A model generated the notes under the pieces. It saw nothing but the letters and a program-made list of their open reading frames with translations. It was not told the DNA's origin and did not search any database. DNA of 64,000 nucleotides from Escherichia coli. Lineage in GTDB: Bacteria > Pseudomonadota > Gammaproteobacteria > Enterobacterales > Enterobacteriaceae. Of this stretch, positions 655-27,196 are shown one piece after another. The stretch is from NCBI RefSeq assembly GCF_044324875.1, contig NZ_CP172185.1; one strand, given 5' to 3'. Made by a program: the position numbers and the translations under genes. Positions within the stretch are counted from its first letter, which is position 1. Each line of letters begins with the position of its first letter.

Positions 655-880
655 ATAGCCTGTTTGAATAATAATCCAGCCTGTGAATGTTAACACTAAA
701 TGATTCATGTTACATGATTAAAAATCATAGCGATAATATTTTTTAAATTTCTTGGTTTGTGTGCTGAATATTAGATTTCATTACACTATCAACCGTATGA
801 AAAAATTACTTTTCAAGAAAGTATTTATCAAGAAAGATATAAAATCTAACTTTCCAATTTATCTCAATAGGAAAATATAA

Positions 881-3800: not shown

Positions 3801-4294
3801 CAATTGTTGAACATATACAAAAAGGTGCGGTAAATTATATTTCAGAAGTGGTAACCATATTAGGTGAGCATTTTAAACACCTTGATATAGAACCAAATAA
3901 AACACTTCGTGCATTAAATATATTTTTTTCCAATCCTCACCCAAGAGATGCAAAGATATTTTCAGGGGTGGTTTTTGAAGATGCTTATGGTGGAACTCAG
4001 CATAAAACAATTTTACCTGACATCAAAAACATCAATTCTACTTGCGTCTGGGAAACAGGTAGAAAAGTCTTAAGAAATAATCTAGTTAATGAACAGGAAA
4101 ATCAAAAAAATGGCCAAAAGGCTGATAAATATGAAAGTAATACTAAAACAACAAAGCAAAAAATAATATATTCTTTATTAGTAAAAACATTAGCCAAAAG
4201 GAAAAGAGAAAAATTCATCAAAAATCCTGAGCTTTTTTTTTATGATTCCAAAAAGACGATAGTCAAGAGTATTGGTAAATTATATTTATCATGA
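881..4294 (+). CDS. capsule region-2 multidomain protein (1137 aa): N-terminal KpsC/KpsS-like domain, central HAD-like domain, uncharacterised C-terminal half; putative serotype-specific polymerase
   Basis: AT-rich ORF between kpsT and kpsS; N-terminal segment with VLFPLQIDNYF resembles the LQV(Y/F)NDSQ region of KpsS/KpsC; HAD motif I FDIFDTLL and motif IV-like IGDNVEADV. Confidence 0.6.
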   Translation: MNFLFFLEPSIELNNPLFRYATLRNSLLPQIKTLRRMGHDVVTLLSDSVAQKCIVDNKVEQIGTIAVIDSIEWMNGEGYFPRSLRHQSRNYFDGELLNIKKILLNSIGDLSYKPDVIIVWETPAYYLEELFPEAKCIYQMPGVFSRPPFANLVSFDDRLLERKTKPVDYIIDDGELSDFEKLREKENSFFSSISPTKKKIEDIRKKYSKIVLFPLQIDNYFMVSSVLGDGKTQFDALISCLKLLPGDIALIVTNYISRDIKSAVLSHENIKYLRNRFPNFKYIEEFDLIPCVSQYLVREVDGVISISSSLGYQARYWGKPLLTLGTSHIQNFATTDNFDEFIEQIYTSIAYFNDSNLIGEMKYKNVPQDFLSSDEYPQWLINAITSKYTHSWCDNISNELAKRKREKACLDSLVPYIKKYHPQDDYFCKELSAQIQRYSIISFDIFDTLLMRPFRHPTDLYDFIEPQVRLLTKIPHLNFKKERKNAEKIAFENAIKAGVGEITIEEIYKVLGGALNISAQVQENIMQLEMQTEYDLLYPRKSGYRAYLEAKQAGKKIIFISDMYLGKSFLSKILHKNGYEEYDNLYVSSEHRVKKHSGELFDYVINDLGIEPQTILHIGDNVEADVKKAKSRNIKPFHLKKAYEEFTTCSDYQMLWSRDENKHSLDWKILLSIAGNNLHDNPYLPFRKGTIFGGSPLKLGYYGLGPLLLGYAKWLVESAIKDKVERLYFLSRDGKIMKQAYDIVAKLYHNAPESYYLLCSRRAINLAKVKTYNDIIDLANVDYANNVSLSHLLFNRFGLQIDTIADEVLEKHGFDKQSKLTSNDVDKLQELLLDVKDEVLSIAEKERCCYLEYLNEMKVFDKGEISIVDIGYAGTMQQSLYQLSSNSKKIGGYYLITFRPAIDRVVNNLLAIKSYLAEFIDRHDTYHPFCRYVPLYETLFSCSDTTFIRMTKDLSGTLVPVFMESTPVENTRKTIVEHIQKGAVNYISEVVTILGEHFKHLDIEPNKTLRALNIFFSNPHPRDAKIFSGVVFEDAYGGTQHKTILPDIKNINSTCVWETGRKVLRNNLVNEQENQKNGQKADKYESNTKTTKQKIIYSLLVKTLAKRKREKFIKNPELFFYDSKKTIVKSIGKLYLS

Positions 4295-4483
4295 ATATTA
4301 AGGGGGCGCATATGTATCCGAATTATATATATCATGATTATTTTTTTTAGTTGTTAGAAATAAATTCTTAGCATGGATGCTGTTATTCTTTTTTATATAA
4401 TAAACTTTAGATAATATGAATTGTTTATTGTCAAAAATAAGTATATTTTATTGGGTTAATATATATTTGTATGGTGCATCGGA

Positions 4484-5641
4484 ATGATTGAGTTTATTTG
4501 CTCTGAATTAAATAAAAACCCATATTTAGAAATAATTCCCAATCACAAGTCAAAAATGGTTTATATTGCTTTTTCATCGGTAGATATACCGAGAGGGGCA
4601 TTTATGTTTTGGAAAATAATCAATAGAATGGATGCCTCCAAGATTTTTATTAATGATGAACATAATGGGTGGTATGTTCATGGAATTCCTGGTGTAGGTG
4701 ATGTTAACAAAAGCATTGATTTTTTATTCAATATTTTAAATATGCTTAAAGCAGAAGAGGTAATATTGATAGGCCCCTCAATGGGGGGGTATGGTGCCAT
4801 GTTATATGGTGCTATTCTTAAAATGAAGATGCCATGGATACAATTTCGATGCCTTTCTTTTGGTGGTGAGTTTCATCTGTATATAAAGGAAGCAAGAAGT
4901 GGCAAGCTATCTAAAAAACCACGTAATCCATATTATGCTGATATAAGATGTTTAGTATCCTCATCTGAATTGGATATAGTTCAGGTTTATGGTGACGATG
5001 ATATCAATGATATTTATCAAGCCCATCTTGTTCATGGAATTAAAAATATTGATCTAATTTCTGTAAGAAATTCCCCGCATGCGGTTTCGACGTATTTAGG
5101 AAAGAAAATTGATTTAACAAAAGCAATTAAAAATTATGAATCCTATGGAAAGTTTGAGGTTGAATCTGCATCTAATGTCAGTCAATTTAAAGAGCATGGC
5201 GCTCTATTATATTTTGGTCATTTAATGATGCTTGATAATAATGCTAAAGAGGCAATTAAAAAATTAGAAAAAGCAATAACTATCATACCAGACCATGCTC
5301 TGACGCAGCATAAACTTGGACTTGCATTACTCATGCTGAAAAAAGAAAAAGAAGCACTTTTACACCAAGAATTAGCTATAAATCTAAATCCTGATCTGGC
5401 TCATGCACATTTTCATATTGCCATGCTATCAGAGATGAATGGCGATATTAAAAAGGCTGAGTATCATTACAAAGAGTGTATTAGGTCTGATGAACGTCAT
5501 ATTCGAGCATTGATTTCATTATCATTGTTATATGAAAAAGTAAAGGAGTATGAACTGGCTTTGGATTGTTCATATAAGGTTTTAGCGTATTCTGAAGGTA
5601 ATAAAATGGCCTTGGATATAGTACGAAGAATTACAAAGTAA
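4484..5641 (+). CDS. capsule region-2 protein (385 aa) with alpha/beta-hydrolase-like GxSxG motif and C-terminal TPR-like repeats; function unknown
   Basis: AT-rich ORF co-oriented with region-2 gene 1; GPSMGGYG motif; repeated helical A/L/K-rich C-terminal blocks typical of TPR. Confidence 0.55.
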   Translation: MIEFICSELNKNPYLEIIPNHKSKMVYIAFSSVDIPRGAFMFWKIINRMDASKIFINDEHNGWYVHGIPGVGDVNKSIDFLFNILNMLKAEEVILIGPSMGGYGAMLYGAILKMKMPWIQFRCLSFGGEFHLYIKEARSGKLSKKPRNPYYADIRCLVSSSELDIVQVYGDDDINDIYQAHLVHGIKNIDLISVRNSPHAVSTYLGKKIDLTKAIKNYESYGKFEVESASNVSQFKEHGALLYFGHLMMLDNNAKEAIKKLEKAITIIPDHALTQHKLGLALLMLKKEKEALLHQELAINLNPDLAHAHFHIAMLSEMNGDIKKAEYHYKECIRSDERHIRALISLSLLYEKVKEYELALDCSYKVLAYSEGNKMALDIVRRITK

Positions 5642-5731
5642 AATAATCTGTGTCTCAGTGTAGGTATGTGGCGGTAATGATTTAACTAATAGTTATTGAA
5701 TGTTTCAGTTATACTGAATAAAATTATTATA

Positions 5732-6982
5732 TTAATGGTTTTTAATTTGAGTAGTGTGCATTGTTTGTGTAATGAAAAGATTATTACCATTATTAATATT
5801 ATATTTAAAACACCCATAAAAAACCCAATTAACCTGTGTCTTCACCAATAAATACCCACGAAACTTCTTAAACAGTTTCATATTCGGTTTAAAATCGGCC
5901 TGCCAGAACTGGTGCAAATGCCCTTGATACGTCAAGCCCTTGATGTCGTACAGGGCATTGCCCATCACTTTGAGTGGTTTGTTATGAATCAGTGCAGAGA
6001 TCCCCGCCGTACTGTTAATCGTCACCACCGCTTTAGCATGGCGTAATAGTTCCGGCATCGGGAGATCGTGCACATAAATGACGCGCTCACCTAAGCCATA
6101 TTCCTTACTCAACCGCTTAATTAATGGTCGATAGAGTCTGTGACCACGATCCATCGGATGATGTTTGATCACCAAATAACTTTCTTTCGGCGCTTTACGT
6201 GAAAATGAGTACATGACTTCATTAATATAGTCACGCACATCGTTATAATTGCTGTGGTTACGAATCTGGCTATCGTTATATACCTGCAAAACGGCAAGAT
6301 AATAACGCTGGTCCAACTCGTTCATTAACCTCGGTAATACCTTACGCTGTGTTACCTTGTAAAGTTGCTTGCGCCAGTATGCACGAACCCAGCAACGAGC
6401 TTCATACCACGGGGAAAATGATTTATGGTGGCGGTAGCGAGGGAACTCATGACGGTAATGCCAGCCCATCAGGTAATACCACATCGCATGACCTATACGT
6501 TTCATCGTTGAAGGTTTTAAGTTCTCAACGTGCGGCGTAGGCATATCTGGTAACTTACGATAAAAATCCGGATCGCGCGGTAGCGATGAATATGCGTTCA
6601 CTCCGCCTTCTTCAACGGTAATAAATTGCGGGCGTAAATATCCTTCCTCAAATGCCAGAAAGCGGATCCCTTTCGACTTTGCCCAGCGTTTTGCTTCTTT
6701 GTGCAATGGGCGGCAGTCACCAAAGCAGAGGATGGTATCAAAGTCATATTGCCGGTGGAGATCCCGTAACCATCCGGGGAACTCTTTCGGCGTTTGGTAG
6801 TAAGCCAGGTATTGTCGATGGCGGCAGTAAAAACGATCCCCACCGTTGAATACAACATTCACAGCGTTACGTCCTAATGACTCTAACCATTCGGCGACGT
6901 CATTGAAAAAAGGTCCCATCGGCCCCTGCAATAGCAGATATTTTTTACCGGATAATAAAACGGTTAGTGCATTACCTTGCAT
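5732..6982 (-). CDS. kpsS: KpsS, capsule biosynthesis beta-Kdo transferase (region 1)
   Basis: 416-aa ORF MQGNALTVLLSGKKYLLLQGPMGPFF...; conserved YLAVLQVYNDSQ motif; last gene of the kpsFEDUCS block. Confidence 0.9.
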   Translation of the reverse strand: MQGNALTVLLSGKKYLLLQGPMGPFFNDVAEWLESLGRNAVNVVFNGGDRFYCRHRQYLAYYQTPKEFPGWLRDLHRQYDFDTILCFGDCRPLHKEAKRWAKSKGIRFLAFEEGYLRPQFITVEEGGVNAYSSLPRDPDFYRKLPDMPTPHVENLKPSTMKRIGHAMWYYLMGWHYRHEFPRYRHHKSFSPWYEARCWVRAYWRKQLYKVTQRKVLPRLMNELDQRYYLAVLQVYNDSQIRNHSNYNDVRDYINEVMYSFSRKAPKESYLVIKHHPMDRGHRLYRPLIKRLSKEYGLGERVIYVHDLPMPELLRHAKAVVTINSTAGISALIHNKPLKVMGNALYDIKGLTYQGHLHQFWQADFKPNMKLFKKFRGYLLVKTQVNWVFYGCFKYNINNGNNLFITQTMHTTQIKNH

Positions 6983-7016
6983 AAATAATTTACGTAATAG
7001 TCAACTATGAAATTGT

Positions 7017-9044
7017 TTAGCCAAATCTGACCTTGCAGAACATAATTAATTTGCGGTAATAGCGTATGACTCGCCCCGCTTTTTTTCGGGTAATAAACAT
7101 CGGCTTGCGCGGCGTCTTGATTAAATATTCCGCAGCTTCTTCTACCGTAATAGGTTGTAGCCGTGTTGGGTGGATATAGGTTGGATAAACAATCAACGCC
7201 TGATAGATCAAATCTGCTAACGTTAATTTTTGCTCGCGGCGCGGGCAGTGATGTTCATCAACGGTTAAACCCCAACCGGCATAGAAGGGCAGGCCGTAAC
7301 AATGTACGTGCTTGCCATGTAATAACGCTTCAAACCCGGACAATGATGTCATGGTGTGCACTTCATCTGCGCGCTGAATGCATTGAATAATATCGGCGTC
7401 CAGTGCCTGATAATCAGCGAGTTCAGCAGTCAGTTCTGCCGGAATATCGCCCTTGCGATTCCCCACCAGTACATCCGGGTGCGGTTTATAAACAATGTAG
7501 GCGTGCGGATTGCGCTCGCGTACTGTGCGTAATAACTCAAGGTTGCTCTTAATCGAGACAGTGCCTGTTTTAATAGAGGCATCGTCCTCTACCTGACCCG
7601 GCACCAGGATAACTTTTTTATCTTTGGCTTCGGCTGGTAGAGAGAAATCGGCTCCCAGGTTGTACTTACTCAGTTTGCTTTCAACCAGTCGCTGGCGTAA
7701 TTTTTCAGCTCGCATCTGCTGCGCCAGCGTTAACTGGCTGTGATTAAGCAGGACTTCCAGGTCGCTGGGGCGCGTGGCGTCATAGTAGATCCCGCGTTTA
7801 TCCAGTACCAACGATAGCGGCGGCAGCAGGTCAGAGCCAAGTCCGGATGAACGCAGAAAACCATCTTCCATTCGCCATAACGGCAGTGATTTTTGTTGCG
7901 CTTCGGCTAGCCATTGCTGTTCTCCCTTTACACCCCATACCACGCAAGCCGTCGCCGCAGTACAACGGCGTGAATAACTCAGTCTGTTTGTTGCGGTACG
8001 CAAGAAAGGTTTCAGGATTGCCGACTTCCACAGCGTTAAGCCTGGCGACCATAAATAGCCATTACGCTGTTGCTGATGGTTGCGCTGTAATTGCAGCCAT
8101 TGCAGTACGGTAAACAGATCGCTTGCGGCCCCCGTGAGCGGGTCGATATAGCGACAGTAACGCAGGTATGCAGCGGCAAAAAGTTCTTCCAGCGTGGCAG
8201 AACCGCGTCGGGCAGATAACAAAGCGGACTGCGGATGGCGATCGTCGGTTAAGCCCCAGCCTGCATACCAGGGCTGGCCGAAACATGTTACTGGTTTTCC
8301 TGCCAGCAAGGCTTCAAAGCCGTATTGGGATGTCACGACGTAAACCCGGGAAACGTGTCGCAACAGCGACTGCGGGCTGACATTCTCGGCAATCAAACGT
8401 ACTCGTTGCGTGGCGCGCAGATCAGCGAAATAACCTGTTTTCTTTCCTTCCAGGACATCCGGATGCACCTTCACCCAAATTTCGGCTTGAGGATTTTCCG
8501 CCATCGCGGCTTCCAGCATGGCAGCAAACTCATGCGGGCCAGCATTGCCATACGTCACTGACATATCATTAAATGTCTGATCGACAACCAGAACGATGTC
8601 TGAACGTTCTGACTCATCAGCCACAAACGCAGGTGCTAGGTTATATTTCGACAAATCCCCGGTCACGATGGTGTGCATCGCTTCTCTGGCCAGGCTTATC
8701 AGAGCTGTATTTCCGGCTTTATCCTGTACCAGTTTCTCCAGTGCTGAAGGCTTGCTGGCATCGTAGTAAATGCCACAATCATCCACCACCAGAGAAAGCG
8801 GCGGCTCGCCATTGACGCCAAGATCCAGCGAACGCACAAATCCATCTTCCAGACGAATGACGGGTTTTCCCGCTGCTTTGGCGATGGCGACTGGTTTCGC
8901 CGCGCTGGGACGATGTCCCCACACGGCGATAGCATCAACTTCTTGCGGAACAGGGCGCAGCAGAGAAAGTTTCTGGCACGGTTGCGCCAGAAATTTCTCC
9001 AGATGCGGAATACGCCAGATGCCAGGCGAGTAAATGCCAATCAT
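7017..9044 (-). CDS. kpsC: KpsC, capsule biosynthesis dual-module beta-Kdo transferase
   Basis: 675-aa ORF with two repeated modules ([14 protein letters not shown] / [14 protein letters not shown]); 4-bp overlap with kpsU. Confidence 0.92.
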
Positions 9045-9781
9045 GCGTTTTCAGCCAGTTCCTGTGCCATCAGGGCGCGCACTTTTTCCAGGCATGCTGG
9101 GGTGTCGACGCCCGGACCGGTTGCGGCAACCTCAAATGTGCGGATGTTGATCCCCGCGCTCATCAACCGCAGCTGCTCCAGTGATTCTGCCTGCTCCTGC
9201 ATGGACTCCGGTAACTGGCTGTAGTTTTGCAGCACATCGCGACGATAAGCGTAAATACCAACGTGTTTCAGGTAGCGCGCTTTTTCAGCATTACGCGGAT
9301 ACGGAATAGGCGAACGGCTGAAATAAAGCGCATCCTGGCGGGTATTTACCACCACTTTTACCGTGCTTGGCTCGGTCGCTTCTTCGGCAGAAATCGCGTG
9401 GCATAGCGTTGCCACTGGCAACGCGGGGTCATCACGCATTCCTTGTAACAGCGTTTCTACATCCCGCGGGCGAATCATTGGTTCGTCGCCCTGCAGGTTA
9501 ATGTAGATATCTGCCTCGACTTTATGCATCACCTCGACCAGCCGATCGGTGCCGGATTCATGATCGTTGCGCGTCATGATGGCTTTCCCGCCAAATGCCT
9601 GCACGGCCTGTTCAACACGCGGATCGTCTGTTGCCACCCAAACTTCCGCAACGCCCGCCACCTGTAACGCACGCTCGTAAACATGCTGGATCATCGGTTT
9701 GCCGACAATATCGAGTAGCGGCTTACCCGGCAGACGCGATGAGCCATAACGAGCCGGGATGACAATAACAGCTTTGCTCAT
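9041..9781 (-). CDS. kpsU: KpsU, CMP-Kdo synthetase (KdsB paralog)
   Basis: 246-aa [25 protein letters not shown]...; cytidylyltransferase signature; position in region 1. Confidence 0.92.
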
Positions 9782-9790
9782 TTCAACTCC

Positions 9791-11470
9791 TTACAAAGAC
9801 AGAATCACTTTTGCACCCACCGCCAGCTGATAGAGGATGGTGGAAATACCACGGGTAACTTCAATATTTTTCGATTCATATTTCGGCAGAACCATAATCT
9901 CATCGCCCGGCTTGAGTGAATCCACATCTTCCGCGTTGACCGCAGCACCGTTCTGACGAATGACGATAATTCTGGCGTTACCCGATTTTTGCGTCAGGCC
10001 ACCACATTTCTCGATGTAATCCTCGGTGGTCATTCCCTTCTGCCAGCTCACCGCGTTCGGGAACAGCACCTCGCCGTGAACCATAACCAGCGACGTTTTC
10101 TCCGGAATATTGATGACGTCGCCATCTTCCAGCAGAACAGAATCAATATTGGACTCGTTGAGGATCACTTCACCTTTCGGAACCACGGTGCGCGCTTTCG
10201 CCACAAAGCGGCTGATCAGTTGCGCTTCCTGCATTCGCAGGCTGGCTTCTTCTTTGGTGGAGGACTGGGCGGAAAGAGATGCTTCCTCCAGCTTTTGCAG
10301 CGAGAGATTCAGCATCTCTTTCTGACGCTGGGCCACTGATGGGCGATAAAGCTGAACCGCGTTCATCTGCGACATGCTGTTCGGACGGACTTTTTCCAGA
10401 ACCGCACGCATGGTAGAGCCATAAGGCAGCACCATGGCGTGTTCACCGGAGTGCGCGCCTTCAACCCGCACCTGAATGGTGCCTGCATAGCGGTCAGTGC
10501 TGACGATTAAGGTATCGCCATTTTGCAACATACGGCCTGGCGCAGAACTGATCGGATAGTATTCGCTACGTTTTTGCAGTCCCTGTTTACGCATAATCGT
10601 AATGTGAGTCGCGCCAGGCTTAGGGCGCGCCCAGCTCAACGCTTCCGTTACGGGAATGCTGCTTTCGCGGAACTCAAAGTCGTAGCTGTTAAAGACATCG
10701 CCCTGAACGCTGAAAGTATGCTGACGCGGCCCGACGATGATGGTGTCACCATCGGCGAACTGCGAAAGCCCCAGTTTACCGTTCAGCAGGAAGTCGTACA
10801 GGTTGACGTTGGAGCGCACGCGGTTACCGCGCTTGACCACAATATCAACGTAACTTCCGCGCTCTGGATCAACGCCGCCAGCCTTGATCAGATAATTGAG
10901 TAACGAATCAGACGTCACACCGCCATACAGACCAGGATTACGCACAAATCCGGTCACGTACACTTTTACTGGCTGCGCCTGTAATAAGGAGGCGTAGACG
11001 TTGACGTTGGACTGGTACACTTCCTTCACTTTTGATGTAACCAGAGTGTTCAACTGACTATTGCTAACCCCGGCAACTTTCACCGGACCAACGTTTGGCA
11101 GAAAAATATTACCTTTGGGATCAATCTGTAATGCACCATCAAAGGTGAACGCACCCCACAAGCGAACCTGAATGCTATCACCCGGATTCAGAATATAGTC
11201 AGGGTTGAATCCTACCGTCGCACCGCTATCCGCGCTGGTGCCGTTGAAAAGTTGAGCACCAAACATGCGGCTCATGACCACCGGCGGTGCGGGCGGCGGG
11301 GTATTGTCGAAGCCGCTCATGTTTTGCGTATCCGACTGTTGCCCGTTCAGAATACCGGTAAGCGGCGCGGCTCCTGTCAGGTTTGGGTCAGCGTTAATAT
11401 CAATGGCCGCGCTGGCCTGCGCCGCGTGACAGGCGGCAATCAGTAAAATTGATTTAAATAATTTCATCAC
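9791..11470 (-). CDS. kpsD: KpsD, capsule polysaccharide export protein
   Basis: 559-aa ORF with N-terminal signal peptide MMKLFKSILLIAACHAAQASA; position between kpsU and kpsE. Confidence 0.9.
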   Translation of the reverse strand: MMKLFKSILLIAACHAAQASAAIDINADPNLTGAAPLTGILNGQQSDTQNMSGFDNTPPPAPPVVMSRMFGAQLFNGTSADSGATVGFNPDYILNPGDSIQVRLWGAFTFDGALQIDPKGNIFLPNVGPVKVAGVSNSQLNTLVTSKVKEVYQSNVNVYASLLQAQPVKVYVTGFVRNPGLYGGVTSDSLLNYLIKAGGVDPERGSYVDIVVKRGNRVRSNVNLYDFLLNGKLGLSQFADGDTIIVGPRQHTFSVQGDVFNSYDFEFRESSIPVTEALSWARPKPGATHITIMRKQGLQKRSEYYPISSAPGRMLQNGDTLIVSTDRYAGTIQVRVEGAHSGEHAMVLPYGSTMRAVLEKVRPNSMSQMNAVQLYRPSVAQRQKEMLNLSLQKLEEASLSAQSSTKEEASLRMQEAQLISRFVAKARTVVPKGEVILNESNIDSVLLEDGDVINIPEKTSLVMVHGEVLFPNAVSWQKGMTTEDYIEKCGGLTQKSGNARIIVIRQNGAAVNAEDVDSLKPGDEIMVLPKYESKNIEVTRGISTILYQLAVGAKVILSL

Positions 11471-11490
11471 AAACTCATTCAGCGACAGCG

Positions 11491-12639
11491 TTAGTCTCGG
11501 TGATCTTCAATAACAGCCAGCAACAGTTTCAGGGTGCCGAACAGCAGGCAGCACACCAGTAACCAGCAGGCGATCAAATAAGGGATATTTGGAAAAGACG
11601 ATTCCTGCGGCAACTGTGGCGAACTGATCACTGACAGCACCTTGAGCTTACGAGCCGCTTCTACACGGGTCTTTTCAATGGAGGTCAGGGTCAGTTTGTA
11701 CAGCTCGGTGTTGAACTCTACTTTTGATTTGATTTCTTCAAAATCCACCGCCATACGGTTTAGCTTGTCACCCTGCGGCGCTGTGATTTTGCTTTTTTCT
11801 TCGTCAATTTGTGCCTGCAATGACTGAATCGCATTACGCGCACTCACAACTTGCGGGGCGTCCTCACGCAGATACGTCAGCAAGTTCCGCAGGTCCGCTT
11901 CCATCTGGATCTTCTGGCCCATCAGCGTATTCACTAACGTGCTCGCCGCCTGTGCCTGTGCCTGTGGATCCAGAACGTTGTTGTTGTCTTGATAAGAGAG
12001 CAATTCCGCTTTGCTGGCGTCCAGACGCTGGCGTGCTTTTTCCATCTCCGTTTCTGCAAAGGCAAGCTGGTCACGCGCGATGCGATGTGACATCTCATTG
12101 ATAAAGCGCTCTGACTCTTTCAGCACGGTCTGGTTAAACTTAAGCGCAAACTCCGGGCTAAAGCCCTGCGTCTGAATATTCAGTAATCCGGTTTTATCGT
12201 CATACGAGACGTTGATACGGTCCTTGTAGTACTTCAGGAAGCCTTCTGCAGTTTCATCCTTGCTAAGATGATTAAGAAAATCGAGCCCGCTGTGGCTAAA
12301 CGCTTCACGAAAATTTAGTTGCTTATCCAGCGCCGCCAGCATATCCGGCGAGTTGATGTACTCTTTCAGATACAACGCATCTTCTGCGGAACTGGGGTTA
12401 GAGGCACCCAGAAGCAGACCAAAATTCAGGCTGCCGCTGTTTAAATCATCCGAGCGTTTAATGGCGACTTTCGACTCGCTCATATAGCGAGGCTGGCTGA
12501 AGATAGCCAGATAGATCAGCAGCACCGCCATCGGTGTCAGAATGATGATTTTCGCCAGGTGTTTTTGGATATCTGCCAGTGAGATGGCAGACAGACGAGC
12601 ACGCATCCAGGATACGGCAGACTTCACTTTTATCAACAT
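11491..12639 (-). CDS. kpsE: KpsE, capsule polysaccharide export inner-membrane protein
   Basis: 382-aa ORF with N-terminal and C-terminal hydrophobic segments and central coiled-coil region; region 1 position. Confidence 0.9.
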   Translation of the reverse strand: MLIKVKSAVSWMRARLSAISLADIQKHLAKIIILTPMAVLLIYLAIFSQPRYMSESKVAIKRSDDLNSGSLNFGLLLGASNPSSAEDALYLKEYINSPDMLAALDKQLNFREAFSHSGLDFLNHLSKDETAEGFLKYYKDRINVSYDDKTGLLNIQTQGFSPEFALKFNQTVLKESERFINEMSHRIARDQLAFAETEMEKARQRLDASKAELLSYQDNNNVLDPQAQAQAASTLVNTLMGQKIQMEADLRNLLTYLREDAPQVVSARNAIQSLQAQIDEEKSKITAPQGDKLNRMAVDFEEIKSKVEFNTELYKLTLTSIEKTRVEAARKLKVLSVISSPQLPQESSFPNIPYLIACWLLVCCLLFGTLKLLLAVIEDHRD

Positions 12640-19491: not shown

Positions 19492-20376
19492 TCAGAACAG
19501 GCGATCCCACAGTGTGATCAGCAGGCGGATAATGCGATCACGGGCTTTGCGCAGAAGCTGCAGCATCCAGGCCGGAAAGCTGAACCGGGCAATGGCAGCG
19601 TCAAAACTCTGGCCGATGGCGTCACCAAAAGCCTGCTGTGCGTGTTGCTGATCCTGCGCAGTGCGCTTTTCATTCCGGATATGCGAATAAACCGCGCTGG
19701 TTGCCTGTGGTGGCAGGGCGTGGATCATCAGAGACACAAATGCCGGAAGATTCCAGCCGGCAGGAGCGGCTATGGGGAGTACCGGAAATGATGAAGGGAA
19801 CAGGGTTGCCACCCGGGCTGTCACCGTCGCCAGTGAGAGTTCCTGCTGACGGGATGGCGTGCTGCTCTGGTTGTTCCATTCTTCAGCCGGGTGGATGCGA
19901 TCGGCATGGCTGAGAACAAACAGAAAACGCGAGGGATCGGCACCTTCATTCAGTAAAAACTGATGCATGGCGATGTCGGCAGCATACGCACGTTCATCAG
20001 CCCGCAGGATCCAGATAATCAGATCCAGTTCGGGCAGTAACTGACTGTAAAGTGCCCGGTATTCCTGATCATGCTGTGGTGTTTCGCCAGTGCCGGGCAG
20101 ATCGACCAGCGTCATTCTTCGTTCACCGGGCTGAAAGGTAAGACGATGAGCCTGACGGGTGCAGCCGTTCAGCGGATGCGTGGCGCAGACACGGGACTGA
20201 AAAATGGCATTGCACAGGCTGCTTTTTCCGGCACCGGATTTACCCATAATGCCAATAACGGGTTCGTACTGAATGACGCTGCGAAGATGTTCAAGGATTT
20301 TCTGGCGAATTTCTTCAGGAAGAAAGGTCAGATGTGACTTTACGTGTGCGGAGAGGGAAGAATGGCTGAATGACAT
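19492..20376 (-). CDS. YeeP/YfjP/YkfA-family GTPase
   Basis: 294-aa ORF with G1 motif GIMGKSGAGKSS and DLPG G3-like motif. Confidence 0.85.
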   Translation of the reverse strand: MSFSHSSLSAHVKSHLTFLPEEIRQKILEHLRSVIQYEPVIGIMGKSGAGKSSLCNAIFQSRVCATHPLNGCTRQAHRLTFQPGERRMTLVDLPGTGETPQHDQEYRALYSQLLPELDLIIWILRADERAYAADIAMHQFLLNEGADPSRFLFVLSHADRIHPAEEWNNQSSTPSRQQELSLATVTARVATLFPSSFPVLPIAAPAGWNLPAFVSLMIHALPPQATSAVYSHIRNEKRTAQDQQHAQQAFGDAIGQSFDAAIARFSFPAWMLQLLRKARDRIIRLLITLWDRLF

Positions 20377-20476
20377 ACCGTTATCCTGTTGATTTCACTG
20401 AACCGGATCACATTAATCCGGCCTCTCAGTCAGGTAATATGGACGTGAAAATTTTTCCATTGACGGGAAGAAGAGT

Positions 20477-21700
20477 ATGGCTAAAAACAAAGGTATCTGT
20501 CGGAATAAAAAATGCAGCAATCCTGTTTCAGAATTTGATGAGGCAAATGCCCTGAGGTTATGTGATGATCATTATCAGTTATGGAAACGAAATAAAGAGA
20601 ACCGTCGGGTCAGGAATATTTGTCGTATAATCAGTAAATATGACAAAAGTCTGGACCGGGAGATATTTGACAGAGTAATAGATGCTGCAAGAAATCAAAC
20701 GGGAAAGAGAATTGTTGAGGACGCAAAAATATTACATCAATTGCGCAATTCAAAGCAAGTAAGAAAAAGTCTTCATAATGGAGTACTCCGGTCACGGGAA
20801 TGGCTCAATACACAGGAGTTACTGAGAAGAAAAAATATATCTGTTACAGGTGACTCATTTAAATCTTACATAAAGGATATTGTCAGATTATATTGCTATA
20901 AGTTTCTCTACAGCAGAGAATATCTTAATGAAAACGCATACAAAAAACAATATCAGAGAGTTATTAACCCCAGAGAATTTAATGTTCCGATACTTCAACT
21001 TGAAGTTGCATGGATCAATAATAATTGCCGTTCAAGTGATTCAAGCTCTGATATTATCATCCTTCCCAGGATGATAAGAAGAATGGTTGTATTTAATGAT
21101 ACGAAGATAAATAAACAATTAGAGGAAATGTTGGGGGGGATAGCACGAAAAAAAGTCGCAGTAAGGAATAAAGGCGGTCTCTATACCAGAATAAAAAAAG
21201 AAAATGATTTTCGTTCTATGGATAGATTTATGGTGGAAATCGAAAATATCATAAGACCTGAAATATTTCCGACATCAATTTACCCGCCTTTTTCACTTTC
21301 ATTTATCGAGAGAGAATTGCCACTACTGAATCTGGCGCACTCACAGTACAAAAGAGCAATAAGTAAAAAAGTGGCGAATTCAATTTTTTATACTTTGCGA
21401 AAAACTCACGTGGCATTATGGCTGCATCTTGAAATGTTTGCTCTTGTGGCATTCATCAAACTGTATACAGGAAAAGGGTTTGAATTCATGAAAAACATGT
21501 GTGTATTTATAGATTATGATAAAGGGATAATAAAATCCACGCATGAAGAACTGCTGAGTGAAATTAAGTGTAACATTCAGTTGAATTTAAAGGTGAATCC
21601 TGATAATTTTCCTGAATTAATAGAAATATACAATTCATGCTTTAGTAAAAATATATTGTTGTATGATGTTCAGGATGATGGTTTTAAATGGTGTTTATGA
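20477..21700 (+). CDS. hypothetical protein (407 aa), AT-rich orphan with N-terminal Cys/His cluster; no family recognised
   Basis: long clean ORF, visibly more AT-rich than flanking prophage genes; N-terminus CRNKKCSNP...LCDDHY; divergent from GTPase gene. Confidence 0.6.
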   Translation: MAKNKGICRNKKCSNPVSEFDEANALRLCDDHYQLWKRNKENRRVRNICRIISKYDKSLDREIFDRVIDAARNQTGKRIVEDAKILHQLRNSKQVRKSLHNGVLRSREWLNTQELLRRKNISVTGDSFKSYIKDIVRLYCYKFLYSREYLNENAYKKQYQRVINPREFNVPILQLEVAWINNNCRSSDSSSDIIILPRMIRRMVVFNDTKINKQLEEMLGGIARKKVAVRNKGGLYTRIKKENDFRSMDRFMVEIENIIRPEIFPTSIYPPFSLSFIERELPLLNLAHSQYKRAISKKVANSIFYTLRKTHVALWLHLEMFALVAFIKLYTGKGFEFMKNMCVFIDYDKGIIKSTHEELLSEIKCNIQLNLKVNPDNFPELIEIYNSCFSKNILLYDVQDDGFKWCL

Positions 21701-22199
21701 TGTGAAAATATTAAATTTATATTACATTTTAATTATCGACAAAAAACACATAAAGAAATCTAAAGGGAATGAGCGTCAAATGAGCTGATATAGCGCCAGT
21801 TTGGTATGGTCATGTGATTTGATGATTAAAGCTTACGGATAATAACACTCCTCTGTGAGCCATATAAATGAGCATGCCATAATCGTCAGTTCAGAGATAA
21901 AACTGACTGAATGATCTTATGTTATAGTAAGCAGTGTTTACCGGATACGATGACTTATCTCTCTCACATCATATGGATTCACTTTCATGGGGTAAAGCGA
22001 TGGGACTACAGACGCTGATTATGATGGTTTGCTGTAAAGTTAGCACAAGTTTTTGCTGTACAGAATACGGAGTAAGAAAAATAATTCCAGAGTAAATCTG
22101 CTCTGCTTTTGAACAGAAAAGATTCATGCTTACCGTGAAAAACTGAAACCAACATTCAGTCTGCATGGATGTCTTAAGATGTTGAGAATGTCGGATATG

Positions 22200-23283
22200 G
22201 TATTATATACACCTTTTCCATTAGGTCCTTTTATGTTTTCATTAAGTCGTTTTGTATGTATTCCTTCAGTGATTCATTAGTGCATGTTTACGCATTTACA
22301 CACTTTTCCCATTAATCTCCTTTAAATGTGTTTCATTACGCATTGCTGTACACATTTTTGAACTGATACACATCCAAGTTAGTAAACCTGTCAGTTCTGA
22401 TTTTACGTTAACTAAATCAGTTTAATGCTGCTGTAAAACAATCTTTCCTGTTTAAGCAATCAATCTGCTATTCGATTTTACTGATGTGACGTTTAACCTT
22501 TCCTGAGCTTTGGTTGTTTGTGGTTTTTGGTTTGTGTTTCGACGTTAAGCTGAGAAAAGTATCTTTACGCTAAATCAACCCGAACTTTCCTGAGGTGATC
22601 TGACGTTCTTTTCGATGTGCTTACGACGATTCTGTTAAACGACTTTCTGGATGTTTTGATAACAATCAGATTGAGGCATTAACGATTCCTGACGTTTTGC
22701 TTTTTCATGTAAGGTCATTGTTTTCGTCATGATGTGGTTTTTCTTCTTGCATTGCGAAAGTGTGATGATTGGTTTTGGTTTTTTGATTCAGATGAGATTT
22801 ACGTTATCGATGGTTAATCGTTTTTATGGTGCGTAGTGAAACGTAACATTTTCGGGATGAGAAAATCGATTCTGATGGTGATGGGGATGATCGTGTTACG
22901 GCGTTATCTGTAAACAGGTTTTAAACGTGTCATTCGCATTCGTGATTGAGTTGTGTGATTAAGCTGTAGGTTTTGGCGTTGTTGTTGATTTGCATTGCCA
23001 GGAAGCGTTCTGGTTGCGTTTCTGGTGTTTTGTTCGAATGTTCTGTGGATCCTTTTCCCTTCAGGCTTTTCTCGTCGTCCATGTCGTTTTTAAATCCATT
23101 CATGCTGTTGTTGCGTGTTTTGCTGCTGTGTGCAGGATTATCTTTTCGTTCCGGGATGGTTTGTTCCGTTTCAATCACTCTTAATCAGAGAGTTGTAGCA
23201 TTGCTTAATGACATGATGCCGTAAAGTTTTACCGCGGTGATTAATGATGTGAAGTCAATCCAAATCAACGGAGATCTCTCATC
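22200..23283 (+). other. ORF-poor, strongly GT-skewed (plus strand) non-coding tract upstream of YagK/YfjJ paralog 1
   Basis: about 1 kb of T- and G-rich sequence with short motifs repeated; only short low-complexity ORFs. Confidence 0.5.
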
Positions 23284-24015
23284 ATGAATCAACCAATACA
23301 CAATGCTTACTGGTTATCCCGTTTTGACAGCCTTCTCGACAGTGCCCTGTCGCAGCACCGTGCCGTCTCGTTAATCCGGGTGGATTTACGTTTCCCTGAG
23401 TATATGCCTGTCACCATCATGGATCCCGATCCGGATTCAGCGGTGATTTCTCGTTTTTTCGAATCCCTGAAAGCCAAAATCCAGGCTTACCAGCGGAAAA
23501 AACGACGTGCCAACAAGCGTGTGCGTGCAACCACTCTGCGTTATTTCTGGTGTCGGGAGTTTGGCAAGGAAAAAGGCAGGAAACATTATCACGTGATATT
23601 GCTGCTCAACAAAGATACCTGGTGCTCGCCAGGGGATTTCAGCGAACCATCTTCGCTGGCGACGATGATCCTGGAGGCATGGTGCAGCGCCCTGCATCTT
23701 GAGGCCTGGCAAGGCGATGGCCTGGTCCATTTTTCCAGGTGGACGCCTTCCCGTAAACCAGCATCGTCTGATGCTCGCCCTTCTTCCGATGACACGCCTT
23801 TGTCGGGTGGATGTTCTGATACCAGGAAGGCTTCAGAAAAAAAGCCGGGTGAAGCCGCTGTTCTCTGGATCAAGCGTGGTGATGTGGAAGCGCTGCAGAA
23901 AGCCCGGAACAGAGCCAGTTATCTCGTGAAATATGAGACGAAGCAGCATGACGGTTCCGGGCAACGTAATTATGGTTGCAGTCGTGGGCCGGGGCGTCTG
24001 CTGGATGGCAGGTGA
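23284..24015 (+). CDS. YagK/YfjJ-family (Inovirus Gp2-like) protein, paralog 1
   Basis: 243-aa ORF; shares blocks with paralogs 2 and 3 (HYHVILLL / EYHVVLCV; MILEAWCSAL / LILDAWSNVL). Confidence 0.7.
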   Translation: MNQPIHNAYWLSRFDSLLDSALSQHRAVSLIRVDLRFPEYMPVTIMDPDPDSAVISRFFESLKAKIQAYQRKKRRANKRVRATTLRYFWCREFGKEKGRKHYHVILLLNKDTWCSPGDFSEPSSLATMILEAWCSALHLEAWQGDGLVHFSRWTPSRKPASSDARPSSDDTPLSGGCSDTRKASEKKPGEAAVLWIKRGDVEALQKARNRASYLVKYETKQHDGSGQRNYGCSRGPGRLLDGR

Positions 24016-24341
24016 GCCCTGTAAAACGACATCCGGTGCCTGAGCTTATGCTACAGGACGTTGGCTGACGCCCTTAGCTCGTTTTCTGAAAAAGTCGTCC
24101 TGAAGTCATGCAACGGTATTTTTCTCTGCTTTCGCTCCTGGAAACACTCCGTCGGTAAAACCTTACTGTCCTGCTTAATGATGTGAACCGAAGTCAACGG
24201 AGATCATTCATTCTGAACCTGCATCCGGTGTTCTGTCCCTTGTCGGTTACCTGATCTTCCCGTTCTGCCGCGGTTTTTCACTTATTCCATCAACCCCATA
24301 CGCAAGCCATAACACGTCAGCGCATCCACGGGCAGGACGCG

Positions 24342-24944
24342 TTGTGGGCTGCGTATAACGGAACATATCTTATGAATGCTATCCCTTATTTCGACTATAG
24401 CATGGCGCCCTTCTGGCCATCTTATCAGAACAAAATCATCGGCGTTCTCAACCGTGTGTTGCGCGAGCAGTCCGGCTCCAGGATACGGCGGATCCTGCTT
24501 CGTCTGCCGGGGGAACATGGCAACATCTTCAGCGACAGAAAAACCTGGTTCGGTATGGCCTTTATCGAAACCGTCAGTGCGCTGATGAATGCAACCCCCG
24601 GACGCGACCTCTGCTGGCTCCTGACCCGTCATCCTGAAAAACCGGAATACCACGTGGTGCTGTGCGTCAGACAGGAATATTTCGACGGCCCTGAGCTGGA
24701 CCGGTTGATTCTGGATGCCTGGAGCAACGTACTGGGCTTCGCGTCACCGGGTGAAGCAGCACCGTACCAGAAACAGATAACCCGGGATGTGGTGCTGGAC
24801 AGTTGTTCACCGGACTGCGAAGAGAGACTCAAAGAGCTGATATGGGCGTTCAGTGATTTCGCCCGCGATCGTCGTGGTGTGCGCGATCCGGAAGCCCGTT
24901 ACCTCGCCGGTAATCCCTGGTATCCCGTAGCAGGCCAGCTCTGA
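24342..24944 (+). CDS. YagK/YfjJ-family protein, paralog 2
   Basis: 200-aa ORF paralogous to 23284..24015; shares the upstream motif TTAATGATGTGAA...TCAACGGAGATC. Confidence 0.7.
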   Translation: MWAAYNGTYLMNAIPYFDYSMAPFWPSYQNKIIGVLNRVLREQSGSRIRRILLRLPGEHGNIFSDRKTWFGMAFIETVSALMNATPGRDLCWLLTRHPEKPEYHVVLCVRQEYFDGPELDRLILDAWSNVLGFASPGEAAPYQKQITRDVVLDSCSPDCEERLKELIWAFSDFARDRRGVRDPEARYLAGNPWYPVAGQL

Positions 24945-25012
24945 AAGCTCAGCTCAGCAGATTCACCCGCATTTGCCCAACATTCATAAATCTCACAGAG
25001 GACATTCTGACC

Positions 25013-25249
25013 ATGTTGACCTCAATGACAGGTCACGACAGCGTATTGCTGCGTGCCGACGATCCCCTGATCGACATGAACTACATCACCAGCTTCACTG
25101 GTATGACCGACAAATGGTTTTACAAGCTGATCAGTGAAGGCCATTTCCCTAAACCCATCAAACTGGGGCGCAGCAGCCGCTGGTACAAAAGTGAAGTGGA
25201 GCAGTGGATGCAGCAGCGAATTGAGGAATCACGAGGAGCAGCAGCATGA
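25013..25249 (+). CDS. alpA: AlpA-family prophage regulatory/excisionase-like protein
   Basis: ...MTDKWFYKLISEGHFPKPIKLGRSSRWYKSEVEQWMQQ matches the AlpA HTH pattern; true start may be an internal Met. Confidence 0.8.
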   Translation: MLTSMTGHDSVLLRADDPLIDMNYITSFTGMTDKWFYKLISEGHFPKPIKLGRSSRWYKSEVEQWMQQRIEESRGAAA

Positions 25250-25478
25250 AACGTGTTGTAATGCCAGTACGCTGGCAATGTGCGAAATGCCGGCGCTGGT
25301 ATTGTGGAAATCAGCCCTGTCCCTGGTGCTGGCGCTGACAACTCCCGCTCATCTTTCTGCTGGCACCCTCTGGCCAGCCAACTGTTTGTCATCATTTCCT
25401 GACTGATTCGTCATTCCCTTCGTCCCGCCAGTCACTGGTGTTTGTATCGTACCGTGCCGGTGTCGATGTGCGCTTTCC

Positions 25479-26075
25479 GTGTGTCTGGTCTGCACCGGCT
25501 TAACAAAATTCAACGGGGATAAAATAGTGCAAATAACCGAAGCCTTACTTTCAGCGCCGGGGGAAATCCGGCGTTTTGTTCAGCAGGCGGTGGACCACTG
25601 GCCAAATCTGTTGGCATTTCACTTCACGCTCCATTCGGCAGAAGGAAACATCAACGGACAACAGATTCATGCATTCTGTACTTCCTTTTACCGACAGGTG
25701 CACGAGCGTATTACTGAACGTAATCACACGGCCAGTCCAGCACCACCGGTGGTATTACGCTGGTTGCGGGAACAACATGGAGGAGCAACAATGCGATGCC
25801 TGTTGCTGCTCAGCCAGACGAGCATTTGCCATCCACGGGTCAGTGCCACGGTTGATGAAGAATGTTCGCAACGGGTGGATTTATTGCAACAGACATGGCG
25901 GGTGATAAGTGCTGACGGACAATGCCGGGTGGAAAGGTGTTTTCAGGCTGCCCGGGGTGATACATCCGGCCAGTATATTGCGTTAAAAACAGTTGCATTG
26001 TCTCTGGGGTTACCGGTTGTGACCGGTATTACCCATCGCCCGGTACAGCGCTGTACATTGATTACAGCTCAGTGA
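25479..26075 (+). CDS. probable third YagK/YfjJ-like paralog (divergent)
   Basis: 198-aa ORF with weak shared blocks (ATMRCLLLLSQ, LLQQTWRVI); start uncertain. Confidence 0.45.
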   Translation: MCLVCTGLTKFNGDKIVQITEALLSAPGEIRRFVQQAVDHWPNLLAFHFTLHSAEGNINGQQIHAFCTSFYRQVHERITERNHTASPAPPVVLRWLREQHGGATMRCLLLLSQTSICHPRVSATVDEECSQRVDLLQQTWRVISADGQCRVERCFQAARGDTSGQYIALKTVALSLGLPVVTGITHRPVQRCTLITAQ

Positions 26076-26092
26076 ACAGCGCTGTTGTGCAG

Positions 26093-26395
26093 TCAACGAG
26101 GTTTTCTGTCTTTTCGTCGGTCATTCAGCATCATTAAACGGGTCTCTGCCTCTTTCTGTTCCTGTGGTGTCACTTCCCCGCACGGCTGACCGTTCAGGTT
26201 GTAACGGGCGCCACCTGCTATTAACGCACGGTAATAGCACGGAGACTGCACATAAGACGCCACTGCTGCATGTAATGTACCAGCGCCAAACGCCAGTTCT
26301 CGGATGGCGATATCCTGTATCAGGTCGTCAGGTATCCCCACTTTAAGTGGTTTTGTTTTTTTCCCGGTTGAATGACTCAGGCCAGAGTTCCACAA
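26093..26395 (-). CDS. hypothetical protein (100 aa), possibly a fragment
   Basis: ORF only; adjacent minus-strand ORF 26410..26604 may be its frameshifted upstream part. Confidence 0.3.
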   Translation of the reverse strand: MWNSGLSHSTGKKTKPLKVGIPDDLIQDIAIRELAFGAGTLHAAVASYVQSPCYYRALIAGGARYNLNGQPCGEVTPQEQKEAETRLMMLNDRRKDRKPR

Positions 26396-27196
26396 GACGA
26401 ATAATGCGCTTACGGTTTTTGCTCTGGCGTTTTGTCATGTCGCCACGGTGTTTTATCAGCAGGTTTCTGTTTATCGTTCAACTGTGGTATCTGGTCACCG
26501 GCCTTCATTTTGTATGCTGTGTCCGTTTTATCCTGCAGCGGCGTTGCCGGTGATTTACTGAAAATACCCTGCGGTTTACGGTTAATGGTCAGAGTTACCA
26601 TCAATTTTGTTACCTCGCGCTGTCAATGGAAGTAGTACCTCATCCGATATCTGAAAATGTTTTCCGGTGGATGTTACAGCGAATTTCATGTAAGACATGT
26701 TGTTGTCGGTATTGTTCAGTACTGTGCGTTGTGAGCGTATTCGTTATCAGACAGAGGGGCAGGGAACAAACGTCAGAGGTTAAGGATATCCGGGAACAAA
26801 TGGCGTAAACGGACATCTCAGTGCCTGAGAAACAGTACAGGTCAGGCCATCATGGCCTGCAAACAGAGCCCTGGCGACCCCGTGGCCGAAAACGAAACAA
26901 TAACCCGCGCGCAGTGCGAGGAATCCGGATGTGAAGCAATCAGCAGGTAATATTAATGGCAGGACCAGCAGGTTCTTTAAACAAACGAACATGCTGTAAT
27001 TGATATTTTGCTTATTGTATTTTCTTTTTAGTTATTAAATTAATTTATTTACGAAAAATTTTCTGCAGATACAGGATGGGAATTCAGGGTGTCATCACGC
27101 CTTATGATGACACCCTTCCCCTGGTTGTGGAAAACCGAAGGATATATCAGGTTCAGCAACAAAATCAGTGAGCTGAAAGATACCAGTCCCCCAGCT

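Follow-up and report, generated by a model that had tools for sequence, protein, structure and literature searches.

The closest described counterparts of the locus presented here are the Escherichia coli K-12 genes yagK (in CP4-6) and yfjJ (in CP4-57), both of which belong to the Gp2, or YagK/YfjJ, gene family and are preceded by a promoter-like site that we call BoxB (GGATAnGGTAwTATATA), yagK having in addition a further box, BoxA. The yagK site, TTTAGA-16-TATAAT, was recovered with RpoD holoenzyme by systematic evolution of ligands by exponential enrichment (SELEX) and carries an H-NS flag (Shimada et al., PMC3946193). In a related class of Pseudomonas islands, a Gp2-like gene is listed with int, alpA and RadC among the likely core functions (bioRxiv 10.1101/2024.08.29.610337). 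We examined a 64-kb stretch of E. coli contig NZ_CP172185.1 (hereafter the window), in which 1583 nucleotides (nt) without a gene separate a gene for a 407-amino-acid (aa) protein from one for a 243-aa Gp2-family protein (paralog 1). The region 22080-23291 is tentatively read as the non-coding control region of the latter, consisting of a candidate distal sigma-70 promoter (BoxB) with the palindromic BoxA upstream of it, about 1 kb of what would be untranslated, unstructured and weakly constrained T-rich leader or spacer in which length and composition are kept and sequence is not, and a near-invariant element of 75 nt that would serve for recognition and for gating translation by enclosing the Shine-Dalgarno sequence and the start codon within a stem-loop. 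Another copy of this element stands at the head of the operon of a diverged paralog (paralog 2). The K-12 genes differ from this arrangement in that BoxB lies only 189 nt (yagK) or 68 nt (yfjJ) from the start codon, the leader is not T-rich, the motif TTAATGATGTGAA...CAACGGAGATC is absent, and the genes follow yagL or yfjI, not a cargo slot.

Boxes and T-rich tract upstream of the Gp2-family gene

BoxA forms the left edge of the conserved module (Table 1). It precedes the Gp2-family gene in the E. coli copies, in Brenneria, in Providencia and at the locus L022, and it also precedes K-12 yagK; the Providencia version is a perfect palindrome, ATAACTC-CA-GAGTTAT. Of the whole region, only the terminator-like hairpin abutting BoxA gave a significant consensus fold (minus strand, z = -4.9). 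BoxB follows 98 nt beyond BoxA and reads GTTGAGAATGTC...TATTATATAC. The first of these blocks was present in 58 of the 62 copies with sufficient upstream DNA, the spacing between the boxes was 98 nt in 54 of 57 metagenome copies, and the -10 block was at least 90% conserved among 38 non-redundant copies. BoxB is also kept in Providencia, Brenneria, L022 and both K-12 genes, yfjJ having BoxB only; the relatives that share the boxes include a metagenomic one, and distant family members show about 40-50% protein identity. The -35 and -10 hexamers of BoxB are spaced within the 16-18 nt of sigma-70 promoters and are kept in relatives, and sequence comparison shows the site to be homologous to the SELEX site of yagK. 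An alternative -10, TATTAT, is present at 22201-22206 with TG just before it. A simple promoter scan did not call BoxB because its -10 ends in A. Conservation of the -35 hexamer and the homology with yagK suggest that BoxB would fire rightwards, towards paralog 1.

BoxB lies about 1.07 kb from the start codon in the window, 750-1100 nt from it in 35 copies of the E. coli tract family and 1750-1900 nt in another 23 that carry a 1.15-kb insert; the corresponding stretch measures 180 nt in Brenneria, 253 nt in Providencia and 333 nt in L022, besides the K-12 values given above. These distances suggest that the tract is an expanded version of the stretch between a promoter-like site and a start codon. 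The Providencia stretch is likewise T-rich and very poor in C (T 0.43, C 0.07).

A first-pass annotation, made by a model from the letters alone, had described a strand-skewed, G/T-rich tract at about 22.2-23.28 kb. Between 22200 and 23283 the base composition is A 0.214, C 0.167, G 0.213 and T 0.406 (G+T 0.62; GC 38-40%). In the core (22466-23165), G+T is 0.669, T 0.41 and C 0.155; this G+T value is not exceeded by any 700-nt window of the 64 kb (mean 0.516, standard deviation 0.031), and T likewise peaks there. The skew is thus as described, though the left 270 nt are T/C-rich: composition is not uniform, G being only 0.13 at 22200-22470, while 22470-23180 is G/T-rich with a G/C ratio of up to 3.4. 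Runs of at least three identical bases number 49 for T, 15 for A and 3 each for C and G, so that the phrase "almost devoid of C and A runs" is accurate for C and overstated for A. The only tandem repeat is GTTTGTG x3, and internal self-similarity is weak. Enriched k-mers include TTAA (18 observed, 7.3 expected), TTACG (7 observed, 1.1 expected) and GCATTGC (x4), which form no regular array; TGACGTTTTGTT units are duplicated, and G/T-rich units show local duplications. In place of the CATTA(A/G) repeats of the left part, other copies align TACTAAG repeats in variable number.

The tract is real, non-coding and unstructured. Each of the six reading frames contains 16-25 stops, a six-frame Pfam search gave no match, and no 3-nt periodicity was detected. 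Indels between tract copies range from 1 to 233 nt without favouring multiples of three, and no open reading frame (ORF) of constant length was found across 16 copies. These results agree with the earlier call that no credible ORF is present, and the tract is not a degraded coding sequence in related genomes either, as the same stop-ridden state is seen in copies that are only 73-78% identical. That it is a decayed protein-coding gene is hardly credible, even if the Prokaryotic Genome Annotation Pipeline (PGAP) places an 82-aa 'hypothetical protein' on the minus strand (WP_000573215.1, 22930-23178) and a genuine 176-aa ORF occupies the corresponding place in a long variant of the tract. Counterparts of WP_000573215.1 in other copies are 26-82 aa long or missing, and it is probably a spurious gene call; a tblastn search of the window with the 176-aa protein returned E = 8.

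Structure was examined at the level of families, single sequences and alignments. An Rfam cmscan of 20000-27000 on both strands (4227 families, E <= 1) returned 0 matches. Single-sequence folds in 150-nt windows did not stand out on either strand (z from -2.0 to +1.3), with the minus-strand RNA of 22680-23200 nearly unfolded and minus-strand minimum free energies in the right part of the tract of -9.5 to -16 kcal per 150 nt. For 10 diverged copies, RNAalifold gave 0 to -9 kcal per 120 columns, which, with the exception of the BoxA hairpin, was no better than column shuffles, and no strong hairpins were found inside the tract. Two further candidates were rejected: a long-range pairing of 22984-22997 with 23256-23269, which variants break without compensation, and terminator-like hairpins at 23001-23023 and 23101-23117, which are weak, the second being absent in other copies. 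The missing Rfam match, ordinary z-scores and near-zero consensus folds make a structured RNA unlikely, and the earlier suggestion of a non-coding RNA, taken in the structured sense, is not supported. An RNA gene, for a structured RNA or for a minus-strand antisense RNA rich in C and A, would be in keeping with the length, positional conservation and ORF-free state of the tract, with a ProQ/FinO-domain gene fragment nearby (26093-26395), and with the minus-strand hairpin at BoxA, which could end a leftward transcript. It is nonetheless very improbable given the folding and Rfam results, the low sequence conservation of the tract and the fact that no antisense promoter was seen by eye.

Conservation was assessed in alignments built from recombining copies, so that the values mix histories. 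Over 22300-23221, mean identity between copies is 85%, lower than at the 4-fold degenerate sites of the adjacent gene (90%); the two identities are uncorrelated, which indicates mosaic recombination. In the 38 non-redundant copies, blocks conserved at 90% or more are confined to 22201-12, 22368-86, 22490-501, 22781-93, 22861-76, 23214-32 and 23238-86. Base composition is held far more tightly, at T 0.401 +/- 0.006, C 0.16 and G 0.21 in 35 copies, and the skew persists in the copies of 73-78% identity, making the tract a clear case of a long region in which composition is kept and sequence is not. No mechanism examined, whether mutational, strand-wide or based on phasing, accounts for the T/G skew. 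Deamination of the non-template strand was rejected, since transitions among rare variants are strand-symmetric (C>T 0.310 and G>A 0.291 per site); a rolling-circle mutational signature was rejected because 4-fold sites of island genes show no consistent G+T excess (0.37-0.64); and curved DNA was rejected, 10-11 bp helical phasing of T-tracts being absent.

The long variant was present in 23 of 58 metagenome copies. Its 1.15-kb insert carries the 176-aa ORF on the minus strand and leaves only the last 190 nt of the tract next to the gene. In one example (L005, 6447-7595) it replaces window positions 22797-23097, and L015, L016 and L149 carry it as well. By eye, the encoded protein shows a Myb/SANT-like helix-turn-helix; its Pfam match, NikA-like, is weak (E = 0.011).

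This pattern of change bears on a reading in which the tract is not a leader at all. A proximal promoter within the last ~190 nt would drive the gene, the tract would be an AT-rich, slippage-expanded, H-NS-bound spacer that separates the gene from the left cargo, and BoxB would be vestigial or directed leftwards. Such filler would be expected to evolve faster than synonymous sites and to tolerate indels and a 1.15-kb insertion, as the tract does; to retain only its gene-proximal 190 nt in the long variant; to be of low GC, as here, with an H-NS flag on the homologous K-12 spacer (PMC3946193); and to contain repeats such as the GTTTGTG array and the duplicated TGACGTTTTGTT units. It would not be expected to keep BoxA and BoxB with the gene over large distances at a fixed mutual spacing, or to hold T at 0.40 +/- 0.006 despite 15-25% divergence. 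T-tract phasing of the curved-DNA kind is absent, and a clear proximal promoter was not found. On balance we judge the spacer explanation unlikely.

The repeated motif and the proteins it precedes

As proposed in the first-pass annotation, a near copy of one motif stands before each of two YagK/YfjJ paralogs. The sequence TTAATGATGTGAA occurs at 23241-23253 and 24175-24187, and A/GTCAACGGAGATC at 23264-23276 and 24193-24205. The two motif copies (m1 and m2) are 76-77% identical over ~70 nt (self-BLAST E = 1.9e-4) and are the only ones in the window, while the two proteins that they precede share only 17% identity. The 75 nt leading up to the start codon of paralog 1 are nearly invariant in the 38 non-redundant copies, and the motif is nearly identical even where the protein is only 64-71% identical. 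The arms of m1 form a 15-nt inverted repeat, TGATTAATGATGTGA / TCTCATCATGAATCA, with 87% complementarity. Its 24-nt loop holds three NYCAA pentamers (GTCAA-TCCAA-ATCAA) and the Shine-Dalgarno sequence GGAG (23270-23273); a GATC is located at 23273-23276, and the start codon (23284) lies inside the 3' arm. The m1 RNA hairpin has a free energy of -19.4 kcal/mol (z = -3.0), with none of 200 shuffles as stable, and encloses both the Shine-Dalgarno sequence and the AUG; as the element is near-invariant, there is no covariation to judge the stem by. Start-region hairpins of unrelated sequence were found in Providencia (z = -1.95, using G-U pairs) and K-12 yagK (z = -2.9), and none in yfjJ, Brenneria or L022. 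Just upstream of the yagK start (L018 7950-8030, minus strand of the record) is a perfect 7-bp hairpin, TACGGTC-TGCTATA-GACCGTA, flanked by the direct repeats CCTGTATGG / CCTGTACGG; the layout is origin- or operator-like and the sequence is unlike the motif.

The second copy, m2, is the best-conserved block of its intergenic region. It has a 6-bp inverted repeat (AATGAT / ATCATT) and two pentamers compared with three in m1, and it keeps CAACGGAGATC, including GGAG and GATC, with no start codon after it. The conservation of the motif therefore cannot be explained by translation control alone. A 59-nt imperfect palindrome (24298-24356; 70% over 60 columns) lies directly upstream of the paralog 2 start codon.

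The link between motif and gene was followed in a metagenome scan of 120 loci, in which an exact pattern match was required, so that motif divergence could not be revealed. A type-1 motif was followed by paralog 1 at +43 in all 65 loci with sufficient room, and a type-2 motif, in each of 66 loci, by paralog 2 at +185-222, also when cargo separates the two genes. The motif was absent upstream of the K-12 yagK, yfjJ, Providencia and Brenneria homologs; the expectation that it would be conserved upstream of homologs elsewhere thus applies to close homologs and fails for distant ones. On the simplest reading, one factor shared by both genes would recognise the motif. No description of the tract came up in literature searches under gene name, family name or motif sequence.

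Paralog 1 matches the Pfam families YagK_YfjJ_C (E = 3.6e-37) and REP_ORF2-G2P, and the residues H101, H103, Y213, K216, E92 and D34 do not vary among 21 relatives, of which the most distant has 35% identity. An AlphaFold2 model, with a predicted local distance difference test (pLDDT) score of 75.6, a predicted template modelling (pTM) score of 0.77 and a disordered insert at 153-189, predicts that the protein is of the HUH-endonuclease fold, with the His-x-His and catalytic Tyr residues in place. The codons of the HUH motif (HYHVIL) coincide exactly with a near-perfect 18-nt palindrome, CATTATCACGTGATATTG, at 23584-23601. Paralog 2 is a true but distant relative: its Pfam search (E <= 0.01) gave no match and BLASTP only E = 0.002, and the relationship was recovered by hhalign against the family profile (21-sequence alignment, PF11726; 93.5%, E = 2.2e-7, 142 columns). 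Its ARYLAG may be the counterpart of the ASYLVK tyrosine motif, as judged by eye; a pairwise alignment pairs it differently. A 198-aa protein encoded at 25479-26075, after the AlpA-type gene, shows weak collinearity with the Gp2 family; as a third paralog it was not detectable (hhalign probability 4%).

HUH initiators typically work beside their own gene, and the first-pass annotation had offered an origin-like region as one option. The motif would then be the recognition and nick site, a double-strand origin or an origin of transfer, of an HUH endonuclease, with the AT-rich, T-skewed tract as an accessory or unwinding region, a part that the intergenic region ahead of gene II plays in Ff phages, and would serve rolling-circle replication or mobilisation of the excised island; the second copy would be a second binding site or a termination site. 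The predicted fold of the adjacent protein, with its catalytic residues, fits such a role, as does the m1 inverted repeat with tandem pentamers in its loop: NS1 and the Rep protein of adeno-associated virus bind short tandem repeats, which these pentamers resemble. Also in favour are the retention of CAACGGAGATC in m2 without a start codon to serve, the near-identity of the motif where the protein has diverged to 64-71%, and the DUF3987/YfjI helicase-like gene that relatives have beside the module, though that gene is absent from this island copy and distant homologs lack the motif.

Like the intergenic region ahead of gene II in the Ff phages (M13/fd), the tract is non-coding, lies directly upstream of a G2P-type HUH gene, is T-rich on the coding strand and contains TTAAC-type repeats, with short matches noted by eye to TTAAT-N13-TCCAAA and ACAATCTT(T)CCTGTTT. 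The homology to the M13 origin that these matches prompted was rejected, as the best local alignment score, 25, was reached by 34 of 200 shuffles; the tract also differs in having no strong hairpins, in being twice as long, and in being chromosomal and poorly conserved. Parvovirus, circular Rep-encoding single-stranded (CRESS) DNA virus and pMV158-type origins share with the locus an HUH fold, an inverted repeat with NYCAA x3 at the start of a rep-like gene and a paralogous site nearby. They differ in presenting a tight nonanucleotide loop, whereas the m1 inverted repeat encloses 24 nt with the three pentamers inside and no identifiable nick site; the motif here is not common to the distant family. 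An accessory region of 1 kb would be unprecedented, the 1.15-kb insertion is tolerated in 23 of the 58 copies, conserved structure is lacking, and neither an island-wide strand skew at 4-fold sites nor a C>T asymmetry was detected. The origin model is thus kept alive by the HUH fold and the conservation of m2, and weakened by the lack of anything origin-like in the tract and its dissimilarity to M13. We consider it somewhat unlikely, and applicable to the motif only, not to the tract.

Weighing the control-region reading

Of the options raised in the first-pass annotation, regulation is best supported, by the conservation of BoxB, its SELEX-identified counterpart at yagK, and the position of m1 over the Shine-Dalgarno sequence and start codon. 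Transcription from BoxB would cross a long untranslated leader, the first 250 nt of which, unstructured and with C exceeding G, have the composition of a Rho-loading site, and the AT-rich region would favour H-NS. The plus-strand C/G ratio is 1.3-2.0 at 22236-22470 and the minus-strand ratio 1.5-3.4 at 22470-23015, so that unstructured RNA of at least about 80 nt with C > G, as in Rho utilisation (rut) sites, would arise from either strand, judged by composition only. Given the long untranslated leader, Rho-type composition and AT-richness, we propose that the gene would normally be silent and insulated from the left cargo. The m1 stem-loop would further gate translation, and the shared motif would be bound by an island-encoded factor, most plausibly the HUH paralogs themselves, thereby co-regulating both genes.

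Two groups of described systems offer parallels. Long leaders of horizontally acquired or stress genes that are subject to Rho and H-NS, such as that of rpoS, likewise have ~1 kb between a promoter-like site and the start codon and are AT-rich, and the RNA here, if made, would similarly lack translation and structure and have C exceeding G in a segment towards its 5' end. They differ in that the downstream 700 nt of the tract have G>C, the opposite of a Rho site on the plus strand. In the traJ leader of F-like plasmids, regulated by FinP and FinO, a stem-loop also covers the ribosome-binding site of a mobility-related gene, and a ProQ/FinO gene is present in the same island as m1; however, no antisense promoter or terminator was found opposite m1, and the FinO-like gene, a 100-aa fragment at 26093-26395, is truncated, and frameshifted in the closest genome.

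Several observations weigh against this interpretation and account for the caution with which we hold it. The direction and activity of BoxB are presumptive, and its reverse complement also reads TATAAT. The tract evolves faster than synonymous sites and may simply be tolerated filler, and the GTTTGTG x3 array, which is specific to the window, suggests growth by slippage. Strand-symmetric transitions leave the cause of the skew unexplained, and m2 retains GGAG and GATC where no start codon follows. Finally, as the 1.15-kb insert splits the tract in 23 of 58 copies, the gene must also have a proximal promoter, yet a promoter scan and inspection by eye found no convincing proximal or antisense promoter in or around m1.

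Island setting and cargo slots

The window belongs to an E. coli genomic island with a backbone of the CP4-57/CP4-44 type (cryptic prophages) and shares 99.8% identity with strain LH50-c. Homologs of the tract were identified in 1877 of 5426 complete E. coli genomes, at 70-99% identity and in up to 8 copies per genome. They are nearly absent from plasmids (4 matches), and a phage search returned 0 matches. A scan of genome contigs with a single protein as query gave 2 loci only. At every locus examined, a Gp2-family gene lies directly 3' of the tract. The left neighbours of the tract differ by genome, and to the right of the Gp2 gene a restriction endonuclease, an AAA ATPase, IreA, an acyltransferase or a MADS defence gene may be found. 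This constant pairing between varying genes on both sides suggests that the tract and the gene form a core block flanked by two cargo slots. The features of the region are collected in Table 1.

Table 1. Positions of the boxes, tract, motif copies, genes and cargo sites in the window
Feature	Position	Strand	Remarks
Leftward operon	starts 20376	-	GTPase, DUF905, DUF932, antirestriction protein, RadC/JAB, YeeU-CbtA, DUF4942
Variable slot, GTPase gene to BoxA	20477-22060		407-aa gene here, swapped elsewhere for 376-aa, 316+262-aa or 339-aa genes or IS2
407-aa gene without assigned function	20477-21700	+	no Pfam or NCBIfam match
BoxA, left edge of conserved module	22080-22097	+	AATAATTCCAGAGTAAAT; partial palindrome in the window
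Terminator-like hairpin abutting BoxA	22097-22117	-	kept in copies; from consensus scan
BoxB, sigma-70-type promoter-like site	22182-22209	+	TTGAGA, 16 nt, TATATA
Left part of tract	22213-22470	+	T/C-rich, C/G > 1; five CATTA(A/G) repeats at 22214-22340
Right part of tract	22470-23213	+	T/G-rich, C-poor, unstructured, non-coding; G+T 0.66
Motif copy 1 (m1)	23214-23291	+	near-palindrome GTAAAGTTTTAC 23221-23232; inverted-repeat arms 23238-23252 / 23277-23291
Paralog 1, Gp2 / YagK-YfjJ family, 243 aa	23284-24015	+	predicted HUH-endonuclease fold
Cargo-insertion hotspot junction between paralog 1 and m2	24116-24137	unstranded	metagenome inserts all here
Motif copy 2 (m2)	24153-24209	+	GTAAAACCTTAC 24155-24166; TTAATGATGTGAA 24175-24187; GTCAACGGAGATC 24193-24205
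Paralog 2, diverged YagK/YfjJ relative, 190 aa	24372-24944	+	EYH replaces HYH
Gene order rightwards	from 23284		243-aa 'inovirus Gp2 family' gene, 190-aa gene, AlpA-type gene, 198-aa gene, ProQ/FinO fragment

Of 18 metagenome loci with both motif copies, 10 contained 4.1-10.2 kb of unrelated DNA at the single junction between paralog 1 and m2. In several loci the left and right homology segments overlap at this junction by ~4 nt. The direct motif copies might be initiation and termination sites for the HUH endonuclease, bracketing its gene and often 4-10 kb of cargo, with the segment between them released or copied as a circle by rolling-circle chemistry. We regard this as quite improbable; if true, it would provide a very common island family with a built-in means of exchanging defence and virulence cassettes, and the tract would be the loading or unwinding side of an origin.

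At the left end of the window (1-12000), homology to NZ_CP100500.1 points to genes for two integrases and for a number of defence-type proteins, namely a DEAD/DEAH helicase, an ATP-binding protein, a TerB-N protein, an AbiEii toxin with a DUF6088 partner and an AAA ATPase, which suggests that the window is a composite of islands. No tRNA genes were found in the 64 kb.

The module formed by the tract and its gene is thus present in about a third of complete E. coli genomes, often in multiple copies, between slots that exchange defence, restriction and virulence genes. The 75-nt element could be used as a backbone marker in the annotation of such islands. For the YagK/YfjJ 'inovirus Gp2' proteins that they encode, the control region and the 75-nt element offer concrete test substrates with which it could be asked whether these proteins are nickases, replication initiators or regulators.

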